NCBI GenBank assembly: GCA_032718475.1
Contig: JAUCBJ010007595.1
Span: 1 to 57,997, forward strand
DNA length: 57,997 bases
Direction: 5' to 3'
Source of the DNA: Nemertoderma westbladi
Lineage: Eukaryota; Animalia; Xenacoelomorpha
A model generated the notes under the pieces. That model was not told the DNA's origin. It did not search any database and saw only the letters and a program-made list of their open reading frames with translations. Each line of letters begins with the position of its first letter. Within the stretch, counting starts at the first letter, position 1. The position numbers were made by a program, and so were the translations under genes. Below are positions 1 to 22,200 of this stretch, in pieces.

Positions 1-516
1 CCCGATTTATCCGATGTGGTATTTAGTCCACGCGTCCCCGCCGTGTATAAGAGTGAAATAAAGATAACTGAGTTCTGAAGTTCGGTGTATAATAATAGGT
101 TATAGGATATAGATATATTGTGAATTATACGGTAGGCGGGATACGGTAACTAAAGTCCCGTGATCCCCTAACTAAACTAATTGGCTGTACCCTACGCTAG
201 CACTGCTGCACTGAGATAACTGAATCACTGATTAATAGGTTATTGGTTATATTGCACGGTGGCCTTACTGCTACTCAATCGATGCCATTCCCCCCTCTGA
301 TTGGTTAATACCCTTGTTGGCGCCCCGTGGAGTATTCCCGTTCACTCCACCTGTTCTCCTTGGGTTAGGGGTTTGGCCCCTGACCCTCTATTGTGTGCTT
401 CCTTCCCACTCTTATTGGGATGGCACGAGTTGGTTAATTGCCCAATCTCGTGGCTCCCAATATTGCTTATCGGCTTACAACTTTATGGGGTGTTGGCGGG
501 ATTGAATAAGCTAACA
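1..516 (-). repeat. 3' LTR (last ~22 bp lie outside the window)
   Basis: Matches 13662-14177 with about 4 substitutions seen by eye; begins TGTTAGC at 516 on the minus strand. Confidence 0.95.
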
Positions 517-525
517 CTCCCCCCC
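517..525 (-). other. Polypurine tract (PPT)
   Basis: Minus-strand GGGGGGGAG directly abuts the TG of the 3' LTR. Confidence 0.85.
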
Positions 526-1227: not shown

Positions 1228-3762
1228 TTATCTGTTCCTCCTCACGTCCTCTTCCCTGGCCCGTTTCTTGGTTATCACCGCTCCTCTGGCATCATCCGCT
1301 TTCTGCTTCCGGACCTTCGCTGCCACTTCCTTGCTGATCCCGGTCGTCGGCTCCTTGGGCGCTGGTGTTATTAAAGCCCGATACCGCTTCGCCGGTGGCC
1401 CCTCAGAATGGCCTGGTTGTTTCCCTCGTGTGGCGTCCCATAGGATCATCTTCATTGCCTTTGGTACGTGTTCCGCCAAGAAATCCCTAAACTCCCTCCG
1501 GTTCTCTGGTGTCCACCTGTCCAGGTACCGTTGCGTGTTCATAACTCCGGCGAACGATGCCGCCGTAGCTACCTCTTGATAGGTAAACGGTAACCTTCGC
1601 TTTATGATTTCCATGTGGGTCTCCTGGTTTATGAGGAAGAAACCCCACTTGAACTCTTGGGCCTTCATGCGCTGGCGCGTCATGGCCCCGACGTCGGCCC
1701 ACTCCTCGAACCTCGTGAACTTCTCCTCGTCGCTCATCCAGTCGCACTCGCGTCCGTAGTGTCCCCGAAAGTGGCACTTTGGACATCGGTTATGCAACCG
1801 TGGACACGCCCCCATCCTGTGACTTGGTTCTCTACAGTAGAGACAAAAGGTTCCCCGTTGGAACCGGTATAGGCAGCTGCTTTCCTGATGGGTCTGTCTC
1901 CCACAGTAGTCGCAGCCGAGTACCAATGTCTCCCGTCCCACCTCGTCCTTCGTCCCAAGCGATCTCCGCGGTCTATGGAGTCGCTGGTAGGCAAACTTCT
2001 CCACGTTGCTCTCCCTGTTTACGTCGATCTCTCCGCCCCTCTCGGGCATCGTCTCCCCGAATACTATCCGTGGTGCCGTCCCCGGTTGCTCGCCCAACCT
2101 GATGGTGCTCCCCGCGAAATCCATCGCCGGCCCCTCGTGCACCCAGGTCCGCTTGCCGGATCTGTTCCAGAAGGCCCTCGCCCCACTGGCCGTCACCACC
2201 CTTCCGCCAACCCAGTCCGTGTCCGAGTGGCCTATCCTTTCGATGGGCGGCATCTCTCCGAACTCGTCGTCGTCGTCCTCCTCTTCTGGTAGTGTCTCCA
2301 ATCCCGGTATCCCGATGGATCCACTATGTCCCTTCCCGCCTTGGCTCTCGCCCGTAGCTCTCCATCCCTCTAGCTCCCTTAACTTCCTTGGCGGTTGGTC
2401 GCCCTCGGCGCCCGCTGGTATGGGCATCGCGTGCAACCCCGACGTCGACTGTTTCGGCGATCCCACCGTCCATCCCAATTCTCGTCCTAGAGACTCCCCC
2501 GAACTCCCTGACGAAGTCCAATGAAGCTCGTCTAGACCCGCCTGTTCCTCGAAGCCATAACTCTGTGTCCTGGCCTCCTCTTCCCTCTCCTCTGCTTCTA
2601 TCCTCTCCCGTCTAGCGACTTCTTCCAGTCGCTTTGCTTCCCGTCTATCCATCTCTAGCTGCTCCCATCTCTGATACGGTGTATCCGTCTCCCCATCTAC
2701 CAGATGTCGGCTGTTGTAGTACACCGACTCGCCCTTCAGCCCCGGGTGGTCTACCAGACCGTCAAAGGCCGTCTTAAAGGCTCTCCTGTAGCTTAGGGGT
2801 GATCCCGATAACAGAAATGCCCCTGGTTCCCTTTCGATAACTACGGTCATGAATAAGTTAAGCAAACTTATCATCATCCAGTCCTCCTGCAGGATATATC
2901 GCTTCTGATATACCTTTATCGCTCCTCTGCGAAACTGATATACCTCCTGCTTTCCCGGTCTCGCTCCCCACTTCAGCGAGTTCGCTAGTTCTGCTCCGTA
3001 TTCTTCCCTAAACTTCCCCCAATCCATTGGTTTGTGGCATACGAGCCCCAATAATTGGCCCATCGCCACCGCCCCGCATTGGCCTGAGTTCTCGACCACC
3101 CCCAATCCATCCGGTGCCGTCATAGCCATAAAGACTTTCTGCATATCCAGGAGGTTGGTGGCGTCCGGACCGATGATCCTCTCCGCGTCCTCGCGAATCG
3201 CCGATCCCACTTTCGTCGTCGACTTCTCTCTTACTAAGACTTGTACCGCTTTCGGCAGTCGGTCTAATTTCGGCCCGTCCTTCTTCCCATACGTCCCTAG
3301 GTCGAATAAGAAGATGTCCCCATTTGGCGCTGCCAAATGCAAGAGTATGGTCCTGGCCGACCCTGCCGTTCCTCGTCTCGAACCCGCTTCGTCTTCCACG
3401 GTTCCCTCGTCATCTAGGATCATATATCCTCCTCTGTTGACGGACTCTATGAATCTTTTCCAGTCCTTCCTCGGCGATTCCCTCGGATACTTCGGAATCC
3501 CGAACTTCGCTTCGTCCCCTTTCACCACGTAGTGGAAGTGTTGGAAGATCGCGTTGTCCAGCGACGGCGTCCCGTAGGTCCCGACCAACCGCTGTTCGTG
3601 CGCCTCCCGGAAGTGATCCTGCAGCGCTCGTGCCGCGTGACCCCTTTCCAACCTCTCGTAGTATCCTCTCGTCTTCTCCTCCGGGTGTCTTTCGGTGAAA
3701 TCCACCAATATTTCTTTTCCTCCTGACTCCGCCTTTCTCTTCCTGATCAGCTTACTCGCCAT
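1228..3762 (-). CDS. Retrotransposon extra ORF: DEDDy 3'-5' exonuclease-like domain plus three CCHC zinc knuckles (844 aa from first ATG)
   Basis: Uninterrupted ORF inside the LTRs. ExoI ILDDEG (~3414), then LLHLAAP..IFLFDL..LPKAVQVLV, ExoII KVGSAIRED (~3187-3213), LLDMQ, and ExoIII-like QKRYILQED (~2881-2907). Three CX2CX4HX4C motifs at 1744-1914. The ORF track starts at GTG 3771; the first ATG is at 3762. Confidence 0.8.
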   Translation of the reverse strand: MASKLIRKRKAESGGKEILVDFTERHPEEKTRGYYERLERGHAARALQDHFREAHEQRLVGTYGTPSLDNAIFQHFHYVVKGDEAKFGIPKYPRESPRKDWKRFIESVNRGGYMILDDEGTVEDEAGSRRGTAGSARTILLHLAAPNGDIFLFDLGTYGKKDGPKLDRLPKAVQVLVREKSTTKVGSAIREDAERIIGPDATNLLDMQKVFMAMTAPDGLGVVENSGQCGAVAMGQLLGLVCHKPMDWGKFREEYGAELANSLKWGARPGKQEVYQFRRGAIKVYQKRYILQEDWMMISLLNLFMTVVIEREPGAFLLSGSPLSYRRAFKTAFDGLVDHPGLKGESVYYNSRHLVDGETDTPYQRWEQLEMDRREAKRLEEVARRERIEAEEREEEARTQSYGFEEQAGLDELHWTSSGSSGESLGRELGWTVGSPKQSTSGLHAMPIPAGAEGDQPPRKLRELEGWRATGESQGGKGHSGSIGIPGLETLPEEEDDDDEFGEMPPIERIGHSDTDWVGGRVVTASGARAFWNRSGKRTWVHEGPAMDFAGSTIRLGEQPGTAPRIVFGETMPERGGEIDVNRESNVEKFAYQRLHRPRRSLGTKDEVGRETLVLGCDYCGRQTHQESSCLYRFQRGTFCLYCREPSHRMGACPRLHNRCPKCHFRGHYGRECDWMSDEEKFTRFEEWADVGAMTRQRMKAQEFKWGFFLINQETHMEIIKRRLPFTYQEVATAASFAGVMNTQRYLDRWTPENRREFRDFLAEHVPKAMKMILWDATRGKQPGHSEGPPAKRYRALITPAPKEPTTGISKEVAAKVRKQKADDARGAVITKKRAREEDVRRNR

Positions 3763-4264: not shown

Positions 4265-4995
4265 CTCTAACTAATGGTACTACGTACCCTCTAACTCTAA
4301 CTCTGACTAGGTACCACGTACCTACTAACTCTAACTCTAACTAGGTACTACGTACCTACTAACTCTAACTAACTATTGGTACTACGTACCCTCTAACTCT
4401 AACTCTAACTAGGTACTACGTACCTACTAACTCTCTAACTATCGGTACTACGTACCCTCTAACTCTAACTAACTATTGGTAATACGTACCCTCTAACTCT
4501 CTTACTATCGGTACTACGTACCCTCTAACTCTAACTCTAACTAGGTACTACGTACCTACTAACTCTCTAACTGTCGGTACTACGTACCTACTAACTAACT
4601 CTAGGTACTACGTACCTACTAACTCTCTAACTATCGGTACTACGTACCCTCTAACTCTAACTCTAACTAGGTACTACGTACCTACTAACTCTCTTACTAT
4701 CGGTACTACGTACCTACTAACTCTAACTCTAACTAGGTACTACGTACCCACTAACTCTCTTACTATCGGTACTACGTACCCTCTAACTCTAACTCTAACT
4801 AGGTACTACGTACCTACTAACTCTCTAACTATCGGTACTACGTACCCTCTAACTCTAACTAACTATTGGTACCACGTACCCTCTAACTCTCTAACTATCG
4901 GTACTACGTACCTACTAACTAACTAACTCTAGGTACTACGTACCTACTAACTAACTAACTCTAGGTACTACGTACCTACTAACTAACTAACTATT
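4265..4995. repeat. Tandem array of ~22 units (28-34 bp), each with a GGTAC-TAC-GTACC palindromic core
   Basis: Core (TA)GGTACTACGTACC(TA) recurs from ~4277 to ~4976, separated by variable CTAACT/CTCT linkers; lies between pol and the extra ORF. Confidence 0.9.
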
Positions 4996-5100: not shown

Positions 5101-7749
5101 CTAAGGTGCTCCTTCTAAGAGACAGCATTTACCTACCGCTCTCCTGTAGGTTTTTCTGTCCTTCGCACCTATCTTTCCACCTATCCGCACTTCTACCGAT
5201 CGGACTCTTCCGTCCTCGTCGGAGTAGGTGCCTACAACTCTCGCCAACCGCCATTGGTTGTTGATGATAGTATCATCCGTGACGATTACGAGATCTCCCT
5301 CTCTCAACTCCCTGTTTGGCTTCCTCCACTTGCTTCGCTTATGGAGCGTGGGTAGGTATTCTTCTACCCACCTCCTCCAATACTCTGCGCTTATTGCTTT
5401 AGCGACTTTCCAACTTTGGCGGGAGTGTATGTCATCTGGGTCTACACCCCGCATATCGATGGTCGCTGGCCTTTCCATCAGAAAATGGCTAGGCGTCAGC
5501 ACGTCTAACGACTCAGGGTCATCATTCTCCGGATATAGCGGTCTGCTATTAATGATCCCCTCGCACTTCGCAAGTACCGTCCGTAAGACGTCTTCAGTGA
5601 CCATGTGGGTGTTCATCAGCTTCGTCATTAGACGTTTTGAACTGCCCACCAGTCTTTCGATGCATCCTAGTGTATGTGGTGCATACGGCGTCCGTCTCTC
5701 CCACTTTACTTGTCGTCTCCTCATGGCCGCCCTGACTTCTTCTCCCTCCAAGATGTCTAAGGCCTCTGCCATCTCACTCTCTGCGCCCACAAAGTTGGTG
5801 CCGTTGTCGCTATATATCACTGCGATCGTCCCACCTTTGCGGTCCCTAAACCTTTCTAAGGCGTTAATGAACGCTGATGCGGTTGCATCTTGGGCGAGTT
5901 CTATCCCTACCGCCCGCGTATTGTTGCATACGAAGATAATACCGTAGCGTTTCTCCGTGTGTCGCATCACTTTGATCTTTATCGGCCCGAACATGTCCAC
6001 ACCGCAATGCGTAAATGGCGGGTCGTGCTGTCTTACCCTACTCGCCGGTAGTGGCGCCATTTCCTGTACGGCTCGTTCCTTCTTCGCTCGTCGGCAGGTC
6101 TGGCACTGCCCCACTACCGCTTTAACCTTCTTCCTTAATTGTTTGACCCAATAGGTCCTTCTTATCTCTGTGAGGGTTCGGTTGGTGCCCCCATGCAATA
6201 TCGATTTATGGGAGTCCCATATAATCTGGTGGACTATTGGCGATCCTGTGGGAATGATGATGGGTTTCGGTGGCACGACTATACTGTTGTTATATCCCAC
6301 CCTAGAATTCATTACTAGAATCCCATCGTCGTTTAGTTGTGGCGACAGCGTTATCAACTCGCTATCCCGTCGGAGGTGCTGTTGGTTACCGACGCGTTCC
6401 ACCTCGTCGCCGTAGTTCTTGCGTTGTTCATAGCGGATCACTGCCTTGGCCGCTCCTTCCAGATCTATGGTTGTCCTGGTCTTCTTGTCCTTGCCGACTC
6501 CCGCAAGGAAATTCCCAAAGGCTCTCCAGTACGCCACTAGTTTCTTGGTCTTATACCAACTAGAACTGTAGCTGAGGAGTTTATCCGTCGGGTTATCGCA
6601 CAGCTCCCTTCCTGGTTGCACGTCCCTAATCTCCCTCACCATCTGGGAGTATATCTCTTCTCCCTCCGAATCTCCCTCTTCTCCTTCTGATACTACTTCC
6701 GAGCCCGGGTCCACCTTCCTCATCGGCGGCCAGGCCTCCCTATCGCTCAGAAATTGTGGCCCATGTTGCCACAATACTTCCTTCTTCAGGAAAGTGTGGC
6801 GTTCCACGCCCCTCGACAGCAAGTCCGCTGGGTTCTCATCTGTTGGGCAGTAGTGCCACCTTTCCAGTTCTGTGCTCGCCCTTATTTCGTCCACTCTATT
6901 CGCGACGAATATCGGGTATCTCGTCTTTTCGTTGTGTAGCCAACCAAGCACTACCATGGAGTCCGTCCAGTAGTGTGTCTCCACTATGTTGGGAATTGTA
7001 TCCACTAGGTAGGCTGTGGCTCTAACTCCTAGTCTCGCAGCTGTCAATTCTAACTTGGGAACAGATGCTGAATCTGGCGGCGTTGACTTAGCTTTGCTAA
7101 AGGCTAGTCTGGGCTTGTGAGCCCCCTCTCGTTGTACTAAATAGAGTGCCGCTCCGTATGCCTCTAACGACGCGTCGGAGAACATATGTAGGTCCAGATT
7201 CGTCATGTTCCCGTCCGGAAAATACACTCGCGGCATGTTGTATGTTCCCATCCTCTCCAAGTCTCCTGTCCATTTGCTCCACTGTTTCTTGATGTCCTCT
7301 GGTACCTCTACATCCCACTCATCCTTCAATTTATATACTCTCTTGAGTATCTGTTTCCCCGTGACTAGTAATGGGGATGCTAGGCCTAGGGGATCGTATA
7401 TCCTTGCTATATACGATACATAACCCCTCTTCGTATGGGTGTCTGCGCCCTCTTGGCTCAGCTGATACTTCAGTTCGTCTGTTCCTCTATCCCACACGAT
7501 TCCCAATGCCTTTTGCTGCGATTGTGTTCTCTTATTCGCCATGTCCTGTCCTTTGGCTGTTGTAGGGTTATCCATGGTCGATCCTGGTTTCTTGTCTTCT
7601 ATTTCCTTGATAAATTCTTCTGAACTGGATTGGAATTTGGTCAGGTTGAAGCCGGATCCTTTCAGGATGTCGCGAACCTCGCGCCCTGTTTCCAGTATCT
7701 CCTCAACCGTATTTCCAGACTCCATACCGTCGTCTACGTAGAAGCCGCG
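5101..7749 (-). CDS. pol: pol C-terminal part: RT YVDD/thumb, Pao RNase H, integrase (HHCC, DDE), DUF5641-like tail
   Basis: RGFYVDDGMES read after the TGA (YVDD at 7729-7740); FSDAS; H..ILHGG...CQTC; GVDMFGP, YSDNGTNFVGA, IERLVG. Confidence 0.9.
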   Translation of the reverse strand, partial: RGFYVDDGMESGNTVEEILETGREVRDILKGSGFNLTKFQSSSEEFIKEIEDKKPGSTMDNPTTAKGQDMANKRTQSQQKALGIVWDRGTDELKYQLSQEGADTHTKRGYVSYIARIYDPLGLASPLLVTGKQILKRVYKLKDEWDVEVPEDIKKQWSKWTGDLERMGTYNMPRVYFPDGNMTNLDLHMFSDASLEAYGAALYLVQREGAHKPRLAFSKAKSTPPDSASVPKLELTAARLGVRATAYLVDTIPNIVETHYWTDSMVVLGWLHNEKTRYPIFVANRVDEIRASTELERWHYCPTDENPADLLSRGVERHTFLKKEVLWQHGPQFLSDREAWPPMRKVDPGSEVVSEGEEGDSEGEEIYSQMVREIRDVQPGRELCDNPTDKLLSYSSSWYKTKKLVAYWRAFGNFLAGVGKDKKTRTTIDLEGAAKAVIRYEQRKNYGDEVERVGNQQHLRRDSELITLSPQLNDDGILVMNSRVGYNNSIVVPPKPIIIPTGSPIVHQIIWDSHKSILHGGTNRTLTEIRRTYWVKQLRKKVKAVVGQCQTCRRAKKERAVQEMAPLPASRVRQHDPPFTHCGVDMFGPIKIKVMRHTEKRYGIIFVCNNTRAVGIELAQDATASAFINALERFRDRKGGTIAVIYSDNGTNFVGAESEMAEALDILEGEEVRAAMRRRQVKWERRTPYAPHTLGCIERLVGSSKRLMTKLMNTHMVTEDVLRTVLAKCEGIINSRPLYPENDDPESLDVLTPSHFLMERPATIDMRGVDPDDIHSRQSWKVAKAISAEYWRRWVEEYLPTLHKRSKWRKPNRELREGDLVIVTDDTIINNQWRLARVVGTYSDEDGRVRSVEVRIGGKIGAKDRKTYRRAVGKCCLLEGAP

Positions 7750-9486
7750 TCAGATCATATCGACGGCCCTACTGCTGTATCTATCTTCCTTCCCCTTTAC
7801 CGTGTCTCTCACTGCCATAGTCGTCGTAAATGAGGACGACTTGGCCCCCATATTTTGTACTACCATCTTATACACTGGTATTACCGGCGGTTCTTCTTCG
7901 CCGTTATACCATAAGAAGCGTTGACTATCGCTATCTTCCTCTGTTACTCGGACTTGGTTGAACATGCCTTCTATGTCACACGTGAAGGCGTGTTTCCCAT
8001 TCCGAAACCTAAGTAACACCTCTATGCCCGAATTGTAAATATTTGGGCCTTCCAACAGGTAATCGTTTAAGCATTTTCCGTCGGTCTTTGCCGATGCATC
8101 GACTACCATCCTCAGTTTACCTTTCTTTGGGTCTAATGCTACGTGGAGTGGCAGGTAGTATGTCCTGTCCGTATTCGGCTCGTCGACCGGTAACTCCACG
8201 GCCCATCCTTTCTCGACGTACTTCTTAATGGTTTTGTGAATGTACTCGTTCTTCTCGGGGCTCCGTTGTAGTGTTTGTTTCAGCTTGCGGAGTCTCGTGA
8301 GTACCATCCCTCTATTATCGGGTAGCGGTATCTTCGGTAGTTTCCATACCATTCCTATTGTATACCGCCCCTCATCACACGTCATCGATTCCTCCACACT
8401 TTGTAGAGCCTGCTTGTCTTCTACCGAGGTCCCGACCCCTGTATCTTTCAGTCCCTCGAAGTCTTGTCTGAGCAGTCTTTTAAGCTGCTCCTCTGCTCCC
8501 TCGTCACCCATTTCCTGCATTGTTCCCGCGAACATGCATCCTGATGTCTCCGACATCCTGAATGGTATCTTGCTCTTAATTGGACCACTCAGCGTCCACC
8601 CGAATGGCGTTAATATGGCCACCGGGTCGCTCTGCTTGTCTTCGCCGAAGACTGTTTGCATTCTCTCGTGGGCCGTTGGGCAGTCCATGCCTACTATGAT
8701 GGATACCTTCCTAACGTCCACGTCTGGGATTGAGAAGTCAATGTTGTCCAGGAATTTGTATTGCTCGACCTCGATGTTGGTTGGCCGCCTGGCATTGATG
8801 TTAATTGACTCTATTACTTGGATGGGGTCGATGGTTGCCCCATAATCGCATCCTGGTGCCACTGCTGCAATTGCGCACCGTCCTGTCCTCATCTCTAGGA
8901 TCTCGTCTTTGCTAGAGATGGTTGTCACCGCCATCCTGCTTGGCCTCGTTCTCAACCCTATTTCTTCGGCTACCCATTCCTCAACTAATGTGAAGGCAGC
9001 TCCACTATCAACCAGCATTAGTGTTGTTACTGATCGATTGCCTTCCCCGATCACTCGTACTGGTACTACTCCAAGTAGCACTGTTCCTCCCTTCTTCGCC
9101 CCTATTGTGCTCGTTGCCATCGTCTGGCCTCTCCTTTGGCCAAACTTGACCGGCTTCTCTTGGCATTCCCTGGCCTTGTGTCCACTCTTCACACATCGCG
9201 AGCAGATTTTATTGCTCGACGCGTAATCTATCTGGTCTTGCCTCGGTAGCGCCTGCCAGTACCTGTAATTCATAGTTTTATGAAGCGCATTTGCGTGTAG
9301 CTGGCATTTGCTCTTTGGGTCGTAGCCCTCTTTATACAATGCATTGCGTATCGCAGTTATATTCGTACCAAAGTCCCTACTATTTTTATTGACTGGGTTT
9401 GGCCTACTGGACGTACTGGGGTTATGTTTATTCATGTTGTTATTGTTCCCCTGTCCGTCCCTTGATGTTGTCTTATCTTCGTTTGT
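7750..9486 (-). CDS. pol: Gag zinc knuckle, aspartic protease and RT N-terminal part
   Basis: CSRCVKSGHKAREC; LVDSGAAFTLV and IIVGMD; TPFGWTLSG; YYLPLH..KLRMVVDAS..CLNDYLLEGP..CDIEGMFNQV..QRFLW. Confidence 0.9.
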   Translation of the reverse strand, partial: TNEDKTTSRDGQGNNNNMNKHNPSTSSRPNPVNKNSRDFGTNITAIRNALYKEGYDPKSKCQLHANALHKTMNYRYWQALPRQDQIDYASSNKICSRCVKSGHKARECQEKPVKFGQRRGQTMATSTIGAKKGGTVLLGVVPVRVIGEGNRSVTTLMLVDSGAAFTLVEEWVAEEIGLRTRPSRMAVTTISSKDEILEMRTGRCAIAAVAPGCDYGATIDPIQVIESININARRPTNIEVEQYKFLDNIDFSIPDVDVRKVSIIVGMDCPTAHERMQTVFGEDKQSDPVAILTPFGWTLSGPIKSKIPFRMSETSGCMFAGTMQEMGDEGAEEQLKRLLRQDFEGLKDTGVGTSVEDKQALQSVEESMTCDEGRYTIGMVWKLPKIPLPDNRGMVLTRLRKLKQTLQRSPEKNEYIHKTIKKYVEKGWAVELPVDEPNTDRTYYLPLHVALDPKKGKLRMVVDASAKTDGKCLNDYLLEGPNIYNSGIEVLLRFRNGKHAFTCDIEGMFNQVRVTEEDSDSQRFLWYNGEEEPPVIPVYKMVVQNMGAKSSSFTTTMAVRDTVKGKEDRYSSRAVDMI

Positions 9487-11193
9487 CTATGGACTTGCAG
9501 TCCCCTGCGTCGCTGCGTATGGCAATGATTGTCTGAGCCTCGGCAATGCGTTTGATGTATTGTGCTCTGGTTTGGGCCTGTAGTGATCTGTCTTTGGTCC
9601 CTTTCCCAGGCTATCTTCACTATAGACTGGGTCCGTTATTAGTTCAGCCTCGTAATTTAAGAAGTTTGACATTTCTTCTAAACCTGGTTCCGCACCCTTC
9701 TTGTCTCGGGTGGAGAAAGCGATCTTCCTCCATTTGTTGCGCAGCCAGCTCGGTAGTGCCTGCGCTATCGTGGTGATGTTATTGGACGCGTTGAGCTCGT
9801 ATGGCGCGTCTAGCGTCTTCAGCACGATCAGCGCCTTCTCGACTTTGTTAGCAAACGTCTTAATGCTAACGGGATTATCCTGTAGGCCACCCGATGTTAT
9901 GCCTCTCAGCGTTTGCCTGATGATCTTGGCCGGGTGCCCGTATTCCCTATCCAGTGCCCGCCATGCTGTCGTGAAGCCGCCCTCTATTCCCTGATATTGC
10001 CTCACGATGTCGTATGCTGGGCCTCCCGTGTACACTTGTAGATACTTTAGGCACTCCGCCTGCATCAAGTTTTTTGTTAGTATTTCGTTACTATACATTC
10101 GCCGAAACTGTAAGTATTCTTCCGGCCTGCTCCCATCGAATTTGAACGGTTCCACGGGTTGTAATTCGATCCTTGTTTTCAACGCATCGATCAACGTGGC
10201 CATCCCCATTGCCTGCGCTTCTAATGGATTCGACGGGTGCTGTATAGTTTCCCCTGTCTGGTGCGGTCCGTCCGTCCTATTTCTTGATCTTCTCTGACTC
10301 GGATATGTCATCGGGGGTAGCGGCCCCCTCCATATGTCTGTATCACACGATCTGTTTTCGTCCAAGGGTCTTGTTGTTCTTGCTACCATCGGGGTATATT
10401 GTTGATATTGTGATGGGGGAATGTCACCCTGTCCCCCCCCCACCGGTATCTCTGGTACTGGGGTTGATGTTAATACGTTGGGGCCCATGCACCTATCCGC
10501 AATAATTCCCCCCTCCCCTGGGTATATGTTATGTCCCTGCATGCTGTAGTCATACTGCTGTGCTGGTACCGGTATAGGCCTATCAGCTTCTGGCCTACCC
10601 GCCGGTATGTATTCCGCGACTTCCGGGTTTAATCCCGTTGTCCGCGCTATCCTATCGCCTACATTGCCTCTCTCAGTATGGCCTACGGTATGTGCAGTAA
10701 GACCTACAGTATGCCCTACAGTCTGCATGTGTTGCTCGGGATCGAAGTTTATTCTTCTCGAATAATCCTCCCCGCGGCTACCGTATTCTCGATCGGTAGG
10801 TATATTCCGTCGGAAAGTTTCTCTTCGACCCCCCTCTCCACTGTTTTCATCTTCGTACCGGTACATCGCGTACCCCTCTCTCGGCGTGTAATGCGTCTCA
10901 CCGGATCGCATCCCTCCGGGGCGACGGCAATCTCCCGGAGTCCGACCCCACTGACTCTCCGTTCTCATCTCGACTACCGACGGCTCGCTGTCCGTCCTCG
11001 CTCTTCTATCTTTTGCGGCGATGCTTCTACTACTCTCTTCCTCTCTTCTCCTATCAGTGGAATATTCCCGCTCACGAGATCTCTCGTCGACCTCCCGGTT
11101 AAACCCCACTGTTCTTCTTTCCTCCTCTGATCGGGCTCGACGCTCCGTCTGCCCTCCCGCGACGTCAACCTGTCTTTCTCTGCTCGATCGCAC
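9487..11193 (-). CDS. gag: Gag capsid-like (DUF1759-type) region with low-complexity N-terminal part
   Basis: PFKFDGSRPEEYLQF..KYLQVYTGGPA..AWRALDREYG..ALPSWLRNKW is typical of BEL/Pao Gag. Confidence 0.85.
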   Translation of the reverse strand: MRSSRERQVDVAGGQTERRARSEEERRTVGFNREVDERSREREYSTDRRREEESSRSIAAKDRRARTDSEPSVVEMRTESQWGRTPGDCRRPGGMRSGETHYTPREGYAMYRYEDENSGEGGRRETFRRNIPTDREYGSRGEDYSRRINFDPEQHMQTVGHTVGLTAHTVGHTERGNVGDRIARTTGLNPEVAEYIPAGRPEADRPIPVPAQQYDYSMQGHNIYPGEGGIIADRCMGPNVLTSTPVPEIPVGGGQGDIPPSQYQQYTPMVARTTRPLDENRSCDTDIWRGPLPPMTYPSQRRSRNRTDGPHQTGETIQHPSNPLEAQAMGMATLIDALKTRIELQPVEPFKFDGSRPEEYLQFRRMYSNEILTKNLMQAECLKYLQVYTGGPAYDIVRQYQGIEGGFTTAWRALDREYGHPAKIIRQTLRGITSGGLQDNPVSIKTFANKVEKALIVLKTLDAPYELNASNNITTIAQALPSWLRNKWRKIAFSTRDKKGAEPGLEEMSNFLNYEAELITDPVYSEDSLGKGPKTDHYRPKPEHNTSNALPRLRQSLPYAATQGTASP

Positions 11194-11481
11194 GTCGCTG
11201 GGGATACTCGCAATCCCCCTATTACTTTCCGTCGCCGGTTGTTGCGGTTTACCTTGTTCGGCCCTCGCATTGTCCGCTGACGGCTGTGGGACACTCTCTG
11301 CCCCCCCCCCCCCCCCCCCCTCTCGCCGCTAACTCTCTGTTGTGGGGCCTTTGTAGCCCCCCCCCCACTCGCTACATTCTACTTCGCTACCTCTCGCCCC
11401 GCTACTATATATCTCTCTAGTCGACACATCAACCCTGCCACAGTCGGGTCTATTCACCCCCGCCTCTCCCTCTGCTATTGC

Positions 11482-11664
11482 GTGGCCTTCCAGGCCCTCT
11501 ACTCCCTGCCTACCAACTACGCGGCCTACCAGGCCCTCTGCTCCCTGTCTACTAACTACGTGGCCTACCAGGCCCTCTGCTCCCTGTCTACTAACTACGT
11601 GGCCTACCAGGCCCTCTGCTCCCTGTCTACTAACTACGTGGCCTACCAGGCCCTCTGCTCCCTG
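11482..11664 (-). repeat. 39-bp in-frame coding tandem repeat (QGAEGLVGHVVSR x ~4.7)
   Basis: GTGGCCTACCAGGCCCTCTGCTCCCTGTCTACTAACTAC repeated on the plus strand. Confidence 0.9.
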
Positions 11665-12050
11665 GTTACGTAGGCCCGACGTGTTTACATTAATAGCACC
11701 CATATTGGAAACGGAATTAATTTGCTCATTTGAAACAAAATCATTTGTATTATTCTGCGCGACTACGTTATCTGAATTATTTTGTAAATTCGGGCTAAGA
11801 TCATTATTTGAATTGTTCGAATTATTCTGTGTAATTGCGTTATTTAAGTTATTTTGTAGGTCCGAATTCGAGTTATTATTTTGATTATTTGAATTATTTT
11901 GCGTAACTACATCAATATTAGGATTATTTTCTACATTAACACTGGGATTGTTCTGATTTAAATTTAAATTACTACCACTAGGCAAAGTATTTCCTGTAAT
12001 AAAGGTTTGATTAGCGTTATCCCATACGGTACTATTAATATCAACAACGT

Positions 12051-13559
12051 CTACTGTACCATTATTATTATCACCCCCCCCCCGCCCGTACGATTACACC
12101 AGTTCTGGGTCTGTCGTGCGGTCCCTGTCAGTGGGGTGTTAATGAACGTGTCTACGGCTCCTGGCTCCTCAAAAATACTCGAGCCGGCCCCGCTTTCAGA
12201 CGGCAACACTCGGACCAATTCCAGCTCGTGCGCCCGTCTAATCTTATTTTTTGCCGATACACCTTGGCGTTTCTCTAATTCCCTTAACTCTCGCTCAGCC
12301 TTTGCCCCTCTCTCCTCACTCTCCTGGCTGTCCCGTCTGGCCGACTCTACTACACTCCTAGCGTTCTCCCTTCGTCTCGCCTCACGTTCTTTGCGTTCCT
12401 TTTCCCTTCTTGCCTCACGTTCCTTGCGTTCCTCGTCCTCCCTTGCCTCACGCTCTCTGCACTCCTTTTCCTCTATCTCGTCACTCTCCCTAAGGCTCCT
12501 CAAAGCCCTTTCGACCCTCTCACCGTTCTCTTTAATCAATGCCGCTTCCCTCGCTAACCGCGCTCTCCCCTCCTCTAGCCGTTCCTCCATTTCCTTCTGA
12601 CCTTGCTCTGCCACGTCGAGGCGGTATGCGGCACCTATCTCTCTCACCACTCTTTCTTTCGCGGAGGATGTAACAGACTTATCGGTTACGACGGACTTCC
12701 CCCGCCTTCCCGACCTACTAACTTTCCCCGGCCTCCCGGAGCTTTCTCCGACCGACGAGGCCGAATCCTCGGGGTTAACCTCGGATTCGCCCCCTTCGAG
12801 TCCCCTCCAACCCACTGGTTTTACTCCCCGGGCATCGACCAAGTATGGCCCTATGTACACTGGCGCTACACTAGGTTCCATACTCCCACACTCCCATAGT
12901 TCAAACAGTTCGCCGGCTATCCTTTCTGCTCTCTCCCCGGCCAGTTCTCTCTGCCCAAAACGTATTAGGTAATTTAAGTGTCTATCCGACTCACCTAGTC
13001 GCTTTCTCAGTCTCACCTCGTCTACCTTCGCCCCTTCCTTCTTGGCGTCGTTTATCAGCTTCCGGGTCGCGTTGTAGGCCCGTCGAAGTCGCTCAGAAAC
13101 CCCGACGTCCTCGTCGCCGACCTCTCCTCCGTCCCTCCGGGTTCGACGTCGTACCGGCGGCTCCACCGTCGCCGTTCCGGTGGGCCGTCCGTCGCCCTCG
13201 GCCTGTAGCTGGCCGGCGACATCGGTACCGATCTCTCCTCCGTCTCTTCGCGTCCGGCGCCGCACCGTCGGCCCCACCATCGCCGTTTCGGTGGGCCGCC
13301 CGTCGCCCTCGGCCGGTAGCTGGCCGGCGACATCGGCGCGCCGTTCTCCCTCTCGTGTCGACTCGTCTCCATCTCCCTCCATCTCGCTCTCTTTCTCTCT
13401 TGGTTCGACTTCGGGTTCCAGGCCCTCCTCGTCCTGGACTTCCGGTTCGCCCGTTATCGATGTCTCCGGCGTCGTGGGCCTGTATCGCTTGGTCGCGGCC
13501 TCGCGGATCGTTTGATCTTCGTCCGGGGTCCGCGTCGGTGTCTCGCCCGATTCACTCAT
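12051..13559 (-). CDS. N-terminal Gag extension, E/R-rich, predicted coiled coil
   Basis: 502-aa ORF starting at an ATG 81 nt downstream of the 5' LTR; contains a duplicated 37-aa motif and EREARE repeats. Confidence 0.7.
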   Translation of the reverse strand: MSESGETPTRTPDEDQTIREAATKRYRPTTPETSITGEPEVQDEEGLEPEVEPREKESEMEGDGDESTREGERRADVAGQLPAEGDGRPTETAMVGPTVRRRTRRDGGEIGTDVAGQLQAEGDGRPTGTATVEPPVRRRTRRDGGEVGDEDVGVSERLRRAYNATRKLINDAKKEGAKVDEVRLRKRLGESDRHLNYLIRFGQRELAGERAERIAGELFELWECGSMEPSVAPVYIGPYLVDARGVKPVGWRGLEGGESEVNPEDSASSVGESSGRPGKVSRSGRRGKSVVTDKSVTSSAKERVVREIGAAYRLDVAEQGQKEMEERLEEGRARLAREAALIKENGERVERALRSLRESDEIEEKECREREAREDEERKEREARREKERKEREARRRENARSVVESARRDSQESEERGAKAERELRELEKRQGVSAKNKIRRAHELELVRVLPSESGAGSSIFEEPGAVDTFINTPLTGTARQTQNWCNRTGGGGVIIIMVQ

Positions 13560-13630
13560 CTCGTCTGGTGGCTGATGATTCGGCTAGCTAGGTTGCAGTT
13601 CTTGATGTTCAACTAGGGCGGCAGCTCGGT

Positions 13631-13639
13631 TTTAGTTAC
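13631..13639 (-). other. Putative non-tRNA primer-binding site GTAACTAAA
   Basis: Directly follows the 5' LTR end, has no TGG start, and is complementary to LTR positions 13807-13815. Confidence 0.5.
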
Positions 13640-14177
13640 TGTGACGGGATCCAGGAGGGATCCCGATTTATCCGATGTGGTATTTAGTCCACGCGTCCCC
13701 GCCGTGTATAAGAGTGAAATAAAGATAACTGAGTTCTGAAGTTCGGTGTATAATAATAGGTTATAGGATATAGATATATTGTGAATTATACGGTAGGCGG
13801 GATACGGTAACTAAAGTCCCGTGATCCCCTAACTAAACTAATTGGCTGTACCCTACGCTAGCACTGCTGCACTGAGATAACTGAATCACTGATTAATAGG
13901 TTATTGGTTATATTGCACGGTGGCCTTACTGCTACACAATCGATGCCATTCCCCCCTCTGATTGGTTAATACCCTTGTTGGCGCCCCGTGGAGTATTCCC
14001 GTTCACTCCACCTGTTCTCCTTGGGTTAGGGGTTTGGCCCCTGACCCTCTATTGTGTGCTTCCTTCCCACTCTCATTGGGATGGCACGAGTTGGTTAATT
14101 GCCCAATCTCGTGGCTCCCAATATTGCTTATCGGCTAATAACTTTATGGGGTGTTGGCGGGATTGAATAAGCTAACA
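13640..14177 (-). repeat. 5' LTR (538 bp)
   Basis: Minus strand TGTTAGC...GATCCCGTCACA; the end is supported by the identical termini of the solo LTR at 40375-40961. Confidence 0.95.
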
Positions 14178-15372: not shown

Positions 15373-15900
15373 CTACGTCGACCCGTAATTAGGAAGCGGC
15401 GTCTGATCCATTGTCTGATCGGTATCGTCAGAGTTACATAACTCACTCTCTCCGAGGCCATCTACCGTCAATACTTGGCAATAGCTAGCCACAACGGCCA
15501 CCATATAAAGGCCCAACAAACAATATAAACCAATGGTAACCGTTATAGCAACCTTCGTTGATTGGTTGAAATCATCTCGGAGCCACGCAATAAAACCCTC
15601 CACAATGTAGTCTATCATACAAACAAACATCAATACAACCCAGGGGTATATTAGGTGCGCGCTGCGCTGATTGGTCCCCGCTATTAGACCAATAGAAGAT
15701 GGGATCAATAGTATCATTACCCATATGGACAAGTCCTGTAATAGTGACAACACAATGGCACCAGGCGATATTGGAATAGTTGACACGTAGGTCACCTTGG
15801 CAACCAGGCTAACAATAGCTATAATCATGGTGATGTATCCGCAATAACGAGCTCCGTTGCGTAGGTTGGCACAGCAACAGCAATAATTAAGAAGCGCCAT
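15373..15900 (-). CDS. Four-TM membrane protein, DUF4728/LAPTM-like (175 aa)
   Basis: MALLNYCCCCANLRNGA start, four hydrophobic helices, GLIAG...LIYPWVV and VVASYCQ motifs, C-terminal LPNY (PY-like). A putative 5'-UTR splice acceptor (ctaat...tattatctttatag) lies at 16007-16008. Confidence 0.75.
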   Translation of the reverse strand: MALLNYCCCCANLRNGARYCGYITMIIAIVSLVAKVTYVSTIPISPGAIVLSLLQDLSIWVMILLIPSSIGLIAGTNQRSAHLIYPWVVLMFVCMIDYIVEGFIAWLRDDFNQSTKVAITVTIGLYCLLGLYMVAVVASYCQVLTVDGLGESELCNSDDTDQTMDQTPLPNYGST

Positions 15901-16225
15901 GTCAAAGTGGAAAAATGAAGTAATTATGTTAAGAAAATTAAACACATCGTAAAAATAATGGTTTCTTAGCGTCATCAATCAGTTGCTATTAATCACAGCG
16001 CCAAATCTATAAAGATAATAAGATTAGGTTAATTCATACTATGGGAGCGACACAATATGTTCGCAACTATGTATAAACACAACAACAGCTGGTACCGTGA
16101 CCGGTATAGGCCTAACTATAACCGAATTTGGGGTAATTGAATACGGCGCGGCGGTACGATAAAAGCTACAAATTACGGTGGATCTGTTGTAACTAAAAGG
16201 AATGGAATAAACTTGCGTTAATCGA

Positions 16226-19200
16226 TTAGTTAGTTACAATAGTTAGGTAATCTAACAGTTAGTTACAATAGTTAGGTAATCTAACAGTTAGTTACAATAG
16301 TTAGGTAATCTAACAGTTAGTTACAATAGTTAGGTAATCTAATAGTTAGTTACAATAGTTAGGTAATATAATAGTTAGTTACAGTAGTTAGGTAATCTAA
16401 CAGTTAGTTACAATAGTTAGGTAATCTAACAGTTAGTTACAATAGTTAGGTAATCTAACAGTTAGTTACAATAGTTAGGTAATCTAACAGTTAGTTACAA
16501 TTAATAGTTAGGTAATCTAATAGTTAGTTACAATAGTTAGGTAATCTAACAGTTAGTTACAATAGTTAGGTAATCTAACAGTTAGTTACAATAGTTAGGT
16601 AATCTAACAGTTAGTTACAATTAATAGTTAGGTAATCTAATAGTTAGTTACAATAGTTAGGTAATCTAACAGTTAGTTACAATAGTTAGGTATTCCAATA
16701 GTTAGTTAGAATAGTTAGGTAATATAATAGTTAGTTACAATAGTTAGATAATGTAATAGTTAGTTACAATAGTTAGGTAATCTAATAGTTAGTTACAATA
16801 GTTAGGTAATCTAACAGTTAGTTAGAATAGTTAGGTCATCTAACAGTTAGTTACAATAGTTAGGTAATCTAATAGTTAGTTACAATAGTTAGGTAATCTA
16901 ACAGTTAGTTACAATAGTTAGGTAATCTAACAGTTAGTTACAATATTTAGGTAATCTAACAGTTATTTACAATAGTTAGGTAATCTAACAGTTAGTTACA
17001 ATAGTTAGGTAATCTAACAGTTAGTTACAATAGTTAGGTAATCTAATAGTTAGTTACAATAGTTAGGTAATCTAACAGTTAGTTACAATAGTTACGTAAT
17101 CTAACAGTTAGCTACAATAGTTAGGTAATCTAATAGTTAATTACATAGTTAGGTAATCTAACAGTTAGTTACAATAGTTAGGTAATATAATAGTTAATTA
17201 CAATAGTTAGGTAATCTAACAATTAGTTACAGTAGTTCGGTAATCTAACAGTTAGTTACAATAGTTAGGTAATCTAACAGTTAGTTACAATAGTTAGGTA
17301 ATATAAAAGTTAGTTACAATAGTTAGGTAATGTAATAGTTAGTTAAAATAGTTAGGTCACCTAACAGTTAGTTACCATAGTTAGGTAATCTAACAGTTAG
17401 TTACAATAGTTAGGTAATCTAACAGTTAGTTAAAATAGTTAGGTAATATAAAAGTTAGTTACAATAGTTAGGTAATATAATAGTTAATTACAATAGTTAG
17501 ATAATCTAACAGTTAGTTACAATAGTTAGGTAATCTAACAGTTAGTTACAATAGTTAGATAATCTAATAGTTAGTTACAATAGTTAGGTAATCTAACAGT
17601 TAGTTACAATAGTTAGGTAATCTAACAGTTAGTTACAATAGTTAGGTAATCTAACAGTTAGTTACAATAGTTGGGTAATCTAACAGTTAGTTACAATAGT
17701 TAGGTAATCTAACAGTTAGTTACAATAGTTAGGTAATCTACTAGTTAGTTACAATAGTTAGGTAATCTAACAGTTAGTTACAATAGTTAGGTAATCTAAT
17801 AGTTAGTTACAATAGTTAGGTAATCTAACAGTTAGTTACAATAGTTACGTAATCTAACAGTTAGTTACAATAGTTAGGTAATCTAATAGTTAATTACATA
17901 GTTAGGTAATCTAACAGTTAGTTACAATAGTTAGGTAATATAATAGTTAATTACAATAGTTAGGTAATCTAAGAGTTAGTTACAGTAGTTAGGTAATCTA
18001 ACAGTTAGTTACAATAATTAGGTAATCTAAAAGTTAGTTACAATAGTTAGGTAATCTAACAGTTAGTTACAATAGTTAGGTAATCTAACAGTTAGTTACA
18101 ATATTTAGGTAATCTAACAGTTATTTACAATAGTTAGGTAATCTAACAGTTAGTTACAATAGTTAGGTAATCTAACAGTTAGTTACAATAGTTAGGTAAT
18201 CTAATAGTTAGTTACAATAGTTAGGTAATCTAACAGTTAGTTACAATAGTTACGCAATCTAACAGTTAGTTACAATAGTTAGGTAATCTAATAGTTAGTT
18301 ACAATAGTTAGGTAATCTAACAGTTAGTTACAATAGTTAGGTAATCTAATAGTTAATTACATAGTTAGGTAATCTAACAGTTAGTTACAATAGTTAGGTA
18401 ATATAATAGTTAATTACAATAGTTAGGTAATCTAACAGTTAGTTACAGTAGTTAGGTAATCTAACAGTTAGTTACAATAGTTAGGTAATCTAACAGTTAG
18501 TTACAATAGTTAGGTAATCTAATAGTTAGTTACAATAGTTAGGTAATCTAACAGTTAGTTACAATAGTTAGGTAATCTAACAGTTAGTTACAATAGTTAG
18601 GTAATCTAACAGTTAGTTACAATAGTTAGATAATCTAACAGTTAGTTAAAATAGTTAGGTAATATAAAAGTTAGTTACAATAGTTAGGTAATATAATAGT
18701 TAATTACAATAGTTAGATAATCTAACAGTTAGTTGCAATAGTTAGGTAATCTAACAGTTAGTTACAATAGTTAGGTAATCTAACAGTTAGTTACAATAGT
18801 TAGATAATCTAATAGTTAGTTACAATAGTTAGGTAATCTAACAGTTAGTTACAATAGTTAGGTCATCTAACAGTTAGTTACCATAGTTAGGTAATCTAAC
18901 AGTTAGTTACAATAGTTAGGTAATATAATAGTTAATTACAATAGTTAGGTAATCTAACAGTTAGTTACCATAGTTAGGTAATATAATAGTTAATTACAAT
19001 AGTTAGGTAATCTAACAGTTAGTTACAGTAGTTAGGTAATCTAACAGTTAGTTACAATAGTTAGGTAATCTAACAGTTAGTTACAATAGTTAGGTAATAT
19101 AAAAGTTAGTTACAATAGTTAGGTAATGTAATAGTTAGTTAAAATAGTTAGGTCATCTAACAGTTAGTTACCATAGTTAGGTAATCGAACAGTTAGTTAC

Positions 19201-22200
19201 AATAGTTAGGTAATCTAACAGTTAGTTACAATAGTTAGGTAATCTAACAGTTAGTTACAATAGTTAGATAATCTAACAGTTAGTTAAAATAGTTAGGTAA
19301 TATAAAAGTTAGTTACAATAGTTAGGTAATATAATAGTTAATTACAATAGTTAGATAATCTAACAGTTAGTTGCAATAGTTAGGTAATCTAACAGTTAGT
19401 TACAATAGTTAGGTAATCTAACAGTTAGTTACAATAGTTAGATAATCTAATAGTTAGTTACAATAGTTAGGTAATCTAACAGTTAGTTACAATAGTTAGG
19501 TCATCTAACAGTTAGTTACCATAGTTAGGTAATCTAACAGTTAGTTACAATAGTTAGGTAATATAATAGTTAATTACAATAGTTAGGTAAGCTAACAGTT
19601 AGTTACAATAGTTAGGTAATCTAACAGTTAGTTACAATAGTTAGGTAATCTAATAGTTAGTTACAATAGTTAGGTAATCTAACAGTTAGTTACCATAGTT
19701 AGGTAATATAATAGTTAATTACAATAGTTAGGTAATCTAACAGTTAGTTACAATAGTTAGGTAATCTAACAGTTAGTTACAATAGTTAGGTAATCTAACA
19801 GTTAGTTACAATAGTTAGGTAATCTAATAGTTAGTTACAATAGTTAGGTAATCTAACAGTTAGTTACAATAGTTAGGTAATCTAACAGTTAGTTACAATA
19901 GTTAGGTAATCTAATAGTTAGTTACAATAGTTAGGTAATCTAACAGTTAGTTACCATAGTTAGGTAATATGATAGTTAATTACAATAGTTAGGTAATCTA
20001 ACAGTTAGTTACAGTAGTTAGGTAATCTAACAGTTAGTTACAATAGTTAGGTAATCTAACAGTTAGTTACCATAGTTAGGTAATCTAACAGTTAGTTACC
20101 ATAGTTAGGTAATCTAATAGTTAGTTACAATAGTTAGGTAATCTAACAGTTAGTTACCATAGTTAGGTAATATGATAGTTAATTACAATAGTTAGGTAAT
20201 CTAACAGTTAGTTAGAGTAGTTAGGTAATCTAACAGTTAGTTACAATAGTTAGGTAATCTAACAGTTAGTTACCATAGTTAGGTAATATGATAGTTAATT
20301 ACAATAGTTAGGTAATCTAACAGTTAGTTACAGTAGTTAGGTAATCTAACAGTTAGTTACAATAGTTAGGTAATCTAACAGTTAGTTACAATAGTTAGGT
20401 AATCTAACAGTTAGTTACAATAGTTAGGTAATCTAACAGTCAGTTACAATAGTTAGGTAATCTAACAGTTAGTTACAGTAGTTAGGTAATCTAACAGTTA
20501 GTTACAGTAGTTAGGTAATCTAACAGTTAGTTACAATAGTTAGGTAATCTAACAGTCAGTTACAATAGTTAGGTAATCTAACAGTCAGTTACAATAGTTA
20601 GGTAATCTAACAGTTAGTTACAGTAGTTAGGTAATCTAACAGTTAGTTACAATAGTTAGGTAATCTAACAGTTAGTTACAATAGTTAGGTAATATAAAAG
20701 TTAGTTACAATAGTTAGGTAATGTAATAGTTAGTTAAAATAGTTAGGTCATCTAACAGTTAGTTACCATAGTTAGGTAATCTAACAGTTAGTTACAATAG
20801 TTAGGTAATCGAACAGTTAGTTACCATAGTTAGGTAATATAATAGTTAATTACAATAGTTAGGTAATCTTACAGTTAGTTACCATAGTTAGGTAATATAA
20901 TAGTTAATTACAATAGTTAGGTAATCTAACAGTTAGTTACAGTAGTTAGGTAATCTAACAGTTAGTTACAATAGTTAGGTAATCTAACAGTTAGTTACAA
21001 TAGTTAGGTAATATAAAAGTTAGTTACAATAGTTAGGTAATGTAATAGTTAGTTAAAATAGTTAGGTCATCTAACAGTTAGTTACCATAGTTAGGTCATC
21101 TAACAGTTAGTTACAATAGTTAGGTAATCTAACAGTTAGTTACAATAGTTAGGTAATCTAACAGTTAGTTACAATAGTTAGATAATCTAACAGTTAGTTA
21201 AAATAGTTAGGTAATATAAAAGTTAGTTACAATAGTTAGGTAATATAATAGTTAATTACAATAGTTAGATAATCTAACAGTTAGTTACAATAGTTAGGTA
21301 ATCTAACAGTTAGTTACAATAGTTAGGTAATCTAACAGTTAGTTACAATAGTTAGATAATCTAATAGTTAGTTACAATAGTTAGGTAATCTAACAGTTAG
21401 TTACAATAGTTAGGTAATCTAACAGTTAGTTACAATAGTTAGGTAATCTAACAGTTAGTTACAATAGTTAGATAATATAATAGTTAGTTACAATAGTTAG
21501 GTAATCTACTAGTTAGTTACAATAGTTAGGTAATCTAACAGTTAGTTACAATAGTTGAGTAATCTAACAGTTAGTTACAATAGTTAGGTAATCTAACAGT
21601 TAGTTACAATAGTTAGGTAATCTAACAGTTAGTTACAATAGTTAGGTCATCTAACAGTTAGTTACCATAGTTAGGTAATCTAACAGTTAGTTACAATAGT
21701 TAGGTAATCTAACAGTTAGTTACAATAGTTAGGTAATCTAACAGATGTAAAACAATAGTTGGGTAATCTAACAGTTAGTTACAATAGTTAGGTAATCTAA
21801 CAGTTAGTTACAATAGTTAGATAATCTAATAGTTAGTTACAATAGTTAGGTAATCTAACAGTTAGTTACAATAGTTAGATAATGTAATAGTTAGTTACAA
21901 TAGTTAGGTAATCTAACAGTTAGTTACAATAATTAGGTAATCTAACAGTCAGTTGCAATAGTTAGGTAATCTAACAGTTAGTTACAATAGTTAGGTAATC
22001 TAACAGTTAGTTACAATAGTTGGGTAATCTAACAGTTAGTTACAATAGTTAGGTAATCTAATAGTTAGTTACAGTAGTTAGGTAATATAATAGTTAGTTA
22101 ATATAGTTAGGTAATATAAAAGTTAGTTACAATAGTTAGGTAATCTACTAGTTAGTTATAAGAGATAGGTAATCTAACAGTTAGTTACAATAGTTAGGTA

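Follow-up and report, generated by a model that had tools for sequence, protein, structure and literature searches.

A predicted DEDDy exonuclease–zinc knuckle gene in the env position of a BEL/Pao retrotransposon of Nemertoderma westbladi

Introduction

Third open reading frames (ORF3s) for DEDDy exonucleases have been described, with activity undemonstrated, in the long terminal repeat (LTR) elements Juno and Vesta of bdelloid rotifers and in Terminons (PMC5408684, 2017); they are mentioned again in PMC6431247, PMC5718144 and PMC6338049, and a DEDDy domain also lies inside the Dada DNA transposases (PMC3706591). The profile of the Belpaoviridae (BEL/Pao elements), on the other hand, names gag, pol and env-like genes and no others, in elements of 4.2–10 kb (PMC8742986). 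Here we analyse a BEL/Pao retrotransposon at the start of a 57,997-nt stretch of DNA of the xenacoelomorph Nemertoderma westbladi (GenBank assembly GCA_032718475.1, contig JAUCBJ010007595.1, positions 1 to 57,997; hereafter the window), which carries an exonuclease-like gene, ORF3, where an env gene would stand.

ORF3 is like its counterparts in Juno and Vesta in being a separate DEDDy ORF3 after pol, in the env position, with intact catalytic residues. The rotifer elements belong, we presume, to a Ty3/gypsy-like lineage, unlike BEL/Pao. As far as the two can be compared by description, their motif is given as DEED and no triple knuckle is described in the accessible text, unlike in the BEL/Pao ORF3; moreover, the rotifer ORF3 is reported to be of recent date and to evolve neutrally in its genome (PMC5408684), while that of BEL/Pao is old and constrained and follows pol.

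The nearest architecture is that of the Trypanosoma brucei RNase D TbRND (PDB 7c4c, 7c45), in which a DEDDy domain is followed by tandem CCHC fingers required for RNA binding and for efficient 3′ trimming of guide RNAs (PMC7797062). TbRND is a mitochondrial cellular enzyme with four fingers after a linker of ~28 aa; ORF3 has three knuckles after a disordered linker of ~250 aa, plus an extra helical domain. The two architectures are probably convergent.

Results and Discussion

Position and domain layout of ORF3

A preliminary description of the sequence had placed an 844-aa ORF between the integrase and the 3′ LTR in the sense of pol. Coordinates and strand agree with this: ORF3 shares its strand with pol, which ends at 5101, and the 3′ LTR starts at 516. 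Its features are the following.

1228..3762, minus strand: ORF3, 844 aa, ATG to TAA, between integrase and 3′ LTR
2743..3567, minus strand: DEDDy exonuclease domain, aa ~66–340
1744..1914, minus strand: three tandem CX2CX4HX4C knuckles, aa 617–673
1429..1743, minus strand: helical domain C-terminal to the knuckles, aa 674–778, with F685, A689, G692, T695, G707 and Y728

The protein thus consists of the exonuclease domain, the acidic linker, the knuckles, the small helical domain and a basic tail. All motifs quoted in the preliminary description were found with the sequence given there: LDDEG (ExoI, aa 116), KVGSAIRED (ExoII, aa 184), YILQED (ExoIII-like, aa 289), the knuckles starting at aa 617, 640 and 660, and the basic patches KLIRKRK (aa 4) and PPAKRYR (aa 789). 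The knuckles are kept across 61 aligned rows, the residues of knuckles 2 and 3 being partly set by the search pattern (see below). Conservation of the helical domain owes nothing to that pattern, which includes none of its conserved positions (G692 in 61/61 rows, T695 in 59/61, G707 and Y728 in 55/61 each), and block means of the predicted local distance difference test (pLDDT) are mostly 80–95 in this domain. A profile of the knuckle-helical region found no match in the PDB, zf-nanos matches 4 of 61 knuckle regions weakly, and an atlas search with aa 585–790 returned only leads below 0.9.

Hydropathy analysis detects no transmembrane segment in ORF3 (19-residue maximum 1.3), in line with the earlier remark that the pattern of an Env is absent; a value of 1.8 is attained somewhere along the protein in 10 of the 62 relatives. 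Lacking both a signal peptide and a transmembrane anchor in its sequence, ORF3 is not an envelope glycoprotein.

Fold of the N-terminal domain

Pfam recognizes no family in ORF3, whole or in sub-regions, and phmmer against the PDB gives no match; direct sequence searches alone therefore give no support for a nuclease. Word-indexed homologue searches (with aa 40–370 or with an alignment as query) were also empty, and viral contigs contained no match to ORF3, the knuckle pattern or pol. A language-model search with aa 60–360 gave scores of 0.94–0.95, and 25 of 30 matches belong to a set whose named family is DNA_pol_A_exo1, a label present on 34% of the members of its best cluster. Unindexed phmmer retrieved 75 proteins, chiefly through the knuckle region; the N-terminal domain is also present in 33 of them by an iterated, partly circular profile, and in 11 by the window domain alone. 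DNA_pol_A_exo1 itself was matched just below the cut-off in 2 of 42 scanned proteins. A profile built from 32 relatives without the window protein scores ORF3 at 47 bits (E 2e-14); none of 200 shuffles exceeds 1.8 bits.

AlphaFold run on the single sequence was unusable (pLDDT 31.7). The model from a 32-row alignment has a mean pLDDT of 64.9, mostly high at aa 66–340 and 640–778 and low in the linker. It aligns to the EXO domain of Nibbler with Z 14.1 (203 residues, root-mean-square deviation 3.3 Å), to WRN-exo, RNase D, Rrp6, Egalitarian and EXD1 with Z 11.5–12.8, and to family-A polymerase proofreading domains with Z 11.4–13.1; T. brucei RNase D heads the Foldseek ranking (E values down to 9e-6), with Nibbler and Egalitarian next. 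Since the top Z values lie close together, no single closest structural relative can be selected, and the proteins that share the fold, Nibbler/Mut-7, Egalitarian, EXD1, WRN-exo and Rrp6 (Z 11.5–14.1), have only 11–15% identity to ORF3.

Sequence profiles point most strongly to EXD2. A 27-row profile of the exonuclease domain matches EXD2 with E 1e-11 over ExoI–ExoII, the family's ExoI and ExoII columns aligning to those of EXD2, while Egalitarian and WRN reach just E ~0.5. A later family profile gives E 1.8e-9 for EXD2, 8.7e-6 for Egalitarian and 2.9e-6 for the whole chain of T. brucei RNase D, which is matched over both exonuclease and knuckle. EXD2 has a membrane anchor and a C-terminal domain; ORF3, in contrast, is without a membrane anchor.

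The catalytic DEDDy columns are occupied by D117, E119, D192, Y289 and E293, whose codons start at 3414, 3408, 3189, 2898 and 2886. Across 62 domains the first three columns hold D in 39, E in 40 and D in 36, and the ExoIII column holds D in 32 and E in 19; the window copy reads Y289-x3-E293, acidic but Glu. The assignment of ORF3 to the WRN-exo/EXD/Nibbler/Egalitarian branch, made beforehand from motif spacing, is thus supported by the model and the profiles together with its catalytic residues, and the N-terminal domain is predicted to have the RNase-H-like DnaQ fold of the EXD2/Nibbler/WRN/Egalitarian/RNase D group.

ORF3 in a diverse group of BEL/Pao elements

The knuckle motif was rendered as a DNA pattern, which 57 of 76 proteins match; in metagenomes this pattern yielded at least 120 loci, 80 of them with flanks; collected through ORF3, they carry no information on BEL elements without it. 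Among the matches listed, a BEL pol lies upstream on the same strand in 30 of the 33 loci with at least 5 kb upstream and is never antisense. The three misses are dissimilar. L022 has an integrase C-terminus upstream; L071 is a chance match of the pattern and not an ORF3 locus; L012 contains a broken ORF3 (8912–10209) without pol in the ~9 kb upstream and may be a deleted derivative or an orphan. All eight pol ORFs scanned in relatives are BEL-type with Peptidase_A17 and DUF5641, several relatives have uninterrupted gag-pol frames of 2,100–2,400 aa, and L023 has a 797-bp LTR pair enclosing pol and a broken ORF3. Complete relatives measure ~10 kb.

Pol identity among 24 elements ranges from 26 to 84% (median 36%). 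Trees were compared for 20 of them, the other four having been dropped because the domain was not in the same frame. Of 17 splits, the exonuclease tree has 10 and the knuckle tree 11 in common with the pol tree (shuffled mean 0.3, maximum 3–4), and distances correlate with those of pol at a Mantel rho of 0.90 for the exonuclease and 0.88 for the knuckles (0/2000 permutations). The knuckle tree has no supported split pair in conflict with pol. Judged from these alignments, ORF3 has largely co-diverged with pol in a diverse BEL/Pao group.

Some loci have unusual structures. The ORF3 frames of L005, L015, L043 and L051 are 1300–1600 aa long, with a long N-terminal extension lacking any Pfam match; in protein P0001 the knuckle-helical module is present twice, and in P0047 it is joined to a homeodomain match (E 1.8e-5). 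Six of 12 matches in a prokaryote collection (L125, L126, L129, L130, L132 and L134) have exonuclease and knuckle domains, two of them with a BEL pol; these are likely animal contigs binned into bacterial metagenome-assembled genomes. The other six are chance occurrences of the pattern.

Selection on ORF3

For the sister copies, the analysis drew on contigs of publicly available DNA runs from a single organism. The contigs span ORF3 just as they span pol, and their summed depth, which is not a copy number, is about the same over ORF3 as over pol and far above that of the flank. Of 40 listed variants (out of 103) in the exonuclease region, 31 are synonymous as compared to 22–32% expected (P at most 3e-9), although a single diverged contig is the main source of about seven, and variants do not represent independent events; the listed variants miss most catalytic codons and say nothing on the invariance of these among sister copies. 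Above the listing threshold, this region has no indel that shifts the frame. Between related elements, the ratio of nonsynonymous to synonymous substitution rates (dN/dS) of the exonuclease is 0.10–0.51 in 7 of 8 pairs, the eighth being saturated. One run guessed to be RNA had a small share and yielded scattered contigs of low depth, which speak neither for nor against expression. At 1205–1750 of the window, contigs of two studies join over a 544-nt gap, so that some sister copies lack the end of ORF3.

That the gene is a neutral passenger or part of a nested element might be suggested by the locus with a broken ORF3 and no pol, and by the window copy itself. The preliminary description had called the gene intact; its frame is indeed open, but at the damage load of this copy, in which gag-pol is broken, chance alone would leave ORF3 without a stop with P ~0.3, and its intactness is therefore no evidence of function. 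The synonymous excess, dN/dS well under 1, the fixed position behind pol and the agreement of the ORF3 and pol trees rule this explanation out, leaving it hardly any credence, and no internal repeat pair surrounds ORF3 within the window. By its substitution pattern ORF3 is a selected accessory gene and not a neutral one-off capture. Neither outcome named in the preliminary description as fatal to its claim, namely the lack of a predicted RNase-H-like DEDD fold or a one-off neutral capture or nested element, was thus obtained.

Members with and without a complete active site

All four acidic residues are kept in 36 of the 62 full domains. Since 26 of 62 are without one or more of them, trimming cannot be the function of all members. 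The pol tree unites seven dead members in a single clade, with a support of 100 in the SH-like approximate likelihood ratio test (SH-aLRT); in this clade ORF3 is open and constrained (dN/dS 0.19 and 0.44 in two pairs), and the contigs measure ~10 kb like those of other relatives. Because the dead clade keeps ORF3 open and constrained, the function common to the whole family is likely RNA binding, as far as can be judged from sequence, with cleavage as an extra capacity in more than half of the members. An inactive derivative that binds RNA is already known in EXD1 (PMC5408684).

Two further explanations are touched by these observations. First, ORF3 could be a transport adaptor, an Egalitarian-like RNA-binding module that takes the element RNA to the germline in place of env. 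Egalitarian was matched repeatedly (Foldseek E 5e-5, besides the profile match given above), including structures with a bound I-factor localisation signal, one clade does without catalysis, and ORF3 occupies the env position. However, most members have conserved the whole active site in spite of deep divergence, the matches to Nibbler and RNase D are equally good or better, and Pfam detects neither a LOTUS-like domain nor any other partner domain of Egalitarian, so we regard an adaptor role as improbable. Second, the exonuclease could improve the fidelity of reverse transcription in an oversized element, as nsp14 of nidoviruses raises fidelity for large RNA genomes. Both the window element (~14.2 kb) and its complete relatives are at or above the size range of the family, and the fold matches include proofreading domains of family-A polymerases. 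Nevertheless, the dead-clade contigs are equally long, and a separate ORF with RNA-type knuckles is better suited to an RNA substrate, which makes proofreading very unlikely.

A possible role against host RNA silencing

We tentatively favour, at somewhat less than even chances, the reading that ORF3 is a pol-linked BEL/Pao accessory gene for a predicted RNA-binding 3′-to-5′ exonuclease which counters host RNA silencing by holding and trimming single-stranded RNA ends. The protein would be expressed from its own subgenomic message; a CAGG located 26 nt 5′ of the ATG is a candidate splice site, and inspection of 18 relatives by eye revealed no common acceptor. The knuckles would tether single-stranded RNA and pass its 3′ end to the active site, as do the CCHC fingers in the trypanosome RNase D. 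Targets would be host small or antisense RNAs directed against the element, such as precursors of PIWI-interacting RNAs (piRNAs) or small interfering RNAs (siRNAs) whose 3′ ends are still unprotected, and the catalytically dead members would continue by binding and sequestering alone. A host-facing role is ranked first because the gene is dispensable for BEL/Pao generally, because DEDDy domains recur in mechanistically unrelated transposons, because the nearest folds include small-RNA trimmers, and because catalysis can be lost. The dispensability follows from the published description of BEL/Pao elements, which have, besides gag and pol, no more than an env (PMC8742986).

The same evidence also fits handling of the element's own RNA. 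In this alternative, ORF3 would be a replication helper that is packaged with the nucleic acids of the element or acts on them; it would trim or protect the 3′ end of the genomic RNA, of the primer or of the cDNA, and the knuckles would serve as an additional nucleocapsid-like chaperone. Steady co-inheritance with pol and purifying selection agree with it, and so do the resemblance of the knuckles to Lin28 and retroviral nucleocapsid (profile E 1.6e-5 to 0.01) and the finding of only one intact knuckle among the N-terminal 200 aa encoded by the frame with the Gag C-terminus; such a role has also been suggested for the rotifer and Dada DEDDy domains (PMC5408684, PMC3706591). On the other hand, BEL/Pao elements without such a gene replicate, a successful clade without catalysis speaks against essential trimming, and relatives with ORF3, read by eye, mostly have an ordinary TGG-type primer site, which argues against a special priming step shared by the family. 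Overall, we consider a replication helper rather unlikely, more plausible though than the adaptor.

Several other observations weigh against the silencing antagonist, in addition to the incomplete active sites in 26 members. EXD2, the closest sequence match, is not known as a small-RNA enzyme, and the fourth ligand of the window ORF3 is Glu and not Asp, as in 19 of the 62 domains. The pairwise comparisons indicate purifying selection, whereas a tight arms race would be expected to bring rapid adaptive change. Furthermore, the exonuclease and pol trees have five supported conflicting split pairs, mostly deep, and the branch of the window element is long and its placement unsure. Finally, small RNAs still cover the DEDDy-bearing rotifer elements, for which the same functional hypotheses were proposed, and these elements have not clearly gained in copy number (PMC5408684).

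The broader scenario, that an ancient branch of the Belpaoviridae swapped env for a self-encoded antagonist of small-RNA silencing which later split into cutting and decoy forms, is doubtful.

The element carrying ORF3

The element is ~14.2 kb long and extends on the minus strand from the window start to 14177.

13640..14177, minus strand: 5′ LTR, 538 bp, TGT...ACA, 99.2% match to 1–516 with 4 mismatches
13610..13639, minus strand: primer-binding-site position, without TGG start
9487..13559, minus strand: gag region, broken, in frames 12051–13559, 11329–12093 and 9487–11328; DUF1759 E 5.6e-11
7750..9486, minus strand: Gag knuckle, aspartic protease (Asp_protease_2 E 1.1e-5) and first part of the reverse transcriptase, terminating at an in-frame stop
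5101..7749, minus strand: remaining reverse transcriptase (YVDD), BEL-type RNase H region and integrase with DUF5641, by Pfam
4310..4995, no strand: tandem-repeat array between pol and ORF3 (Tandem Repeats Finder), its unit number differing among sister copies
517..525, minus strand: polypurine tract, 9 nt, directly adjoining the 3′ LTR
1..516, minus strand: 3′ LTR, partial, its outer end cut by the window start

Pfam matches in 5101..7749 are PF05380 (Peptidase_A17, E 2.4e-40), PF17921 (E 1.3e-12) and PF18701 (E 3.8e-24). The order gag, protease, reverse transcriptase, RNase H, integrase with the BEL-type domains DUF1759, Peptidase_A17 and DUF5641 confirms the earlier identification: by its Pfam domains, the element belongs to BEL/Pao (Belpaoviridae). 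Paired LTRs with TG...CA ends, within the 0.2–1.2 kb of the family, and a polypurine tract ahead of the 3′ LTR were found as well. The element differs from the Belpaoviridae in its nuclease-knuckle third gene, which is not env-like, in its size and in having no visible TGG-type primer site.

The LTRs differ at just 4 of 516 positions, which indicates a recent insertion. The gag-pol of this copy is damaged: stop codons interrupt its frame at 11329, 9487 and 7750, and the frame changes near 12051–12093. The inner end of the 5′ LTR (13640) was placed from its TG..CA termini and one diverged contig whose window match ends there. The first 9 nt after this end are complementary to LTR nt 363–371 (window 13807–13815); an equally long match occurs in 22 of 5000 shuffled LTRs, by a test picked after viewing the sequence. 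The site is near TTAGTT, which we take to be an initiator-like motif, and the missing TGG together with the LTR self-complementarity presumably resembles Tf1-type self-priming.

Other features of the window

A satellite array of about 298 copies of a 29-bp unit occupies 16228–24869. At 15373–15975 (minus strand) lies a 200-aa ORF for a host-type membrane protein with a match to DUF4728 (E 5.5e-6), a family associated with arthropods. A non-LTR retrotransposon at 36488–39097 (plus strand) has endonuclease and reverse transcriptase in two adjacent ORFs, and a second non-LTR reverse transcriptase fragment is found at 53352–54461 (plus strand). Long inverted and dispersed repeats with 14–15-bp minisatellite units (28459–29075, 51053–51564, 30435–56305) are probably non-autonomous DNA elements.

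Precedents and significance

The preliminary description had presented the architecture as undescribed in Belpaoviridae. No report of a DEDDy ORF3 in BEL/Pao was found among the literature matches listed, though Repbase, GyDB, subscription journals or supplements could hold one, and none of these matches reports a DEDDy ORF3 with knuckles; a term search of three surveys gave no "exonuclease" (PMC3118150, PMC8556966, PMC6238403). The claim was nevertheless overstated in view of the rotifer ORF3s published in 2017 (PMC5408684). ORF3 thus defines an apparently undescribed BEL/Pao accessory gene family: the concept has its precedent in rotifers, while the host superfamily, the knuckle fusion, the depth of conservation and the dead clade are new as far as searched.

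Whatever the job of ORF3, the Belpaoviridae gain a class of third gene that is invisible to Pfam, DEDDy capture proves not to be confined to rotifers, and the gene brings a new exonuclease-knuckle architecture and an unclassified helical domain. The finding addresses the open question of how animal retrotransposons persist under piRNA control. To our knowledge, element-encoded countermeasures are scarcely known in animals; ORF3 is an assayable candidate with natural controls, namely the clades of one gene with intact and with dead active sites. If the proposed role is true, animal LTR retrotransposons would possess in ORF3 a family-wide suppressor of silencing, built from the nuclease fold with which the host matures piRNAs.

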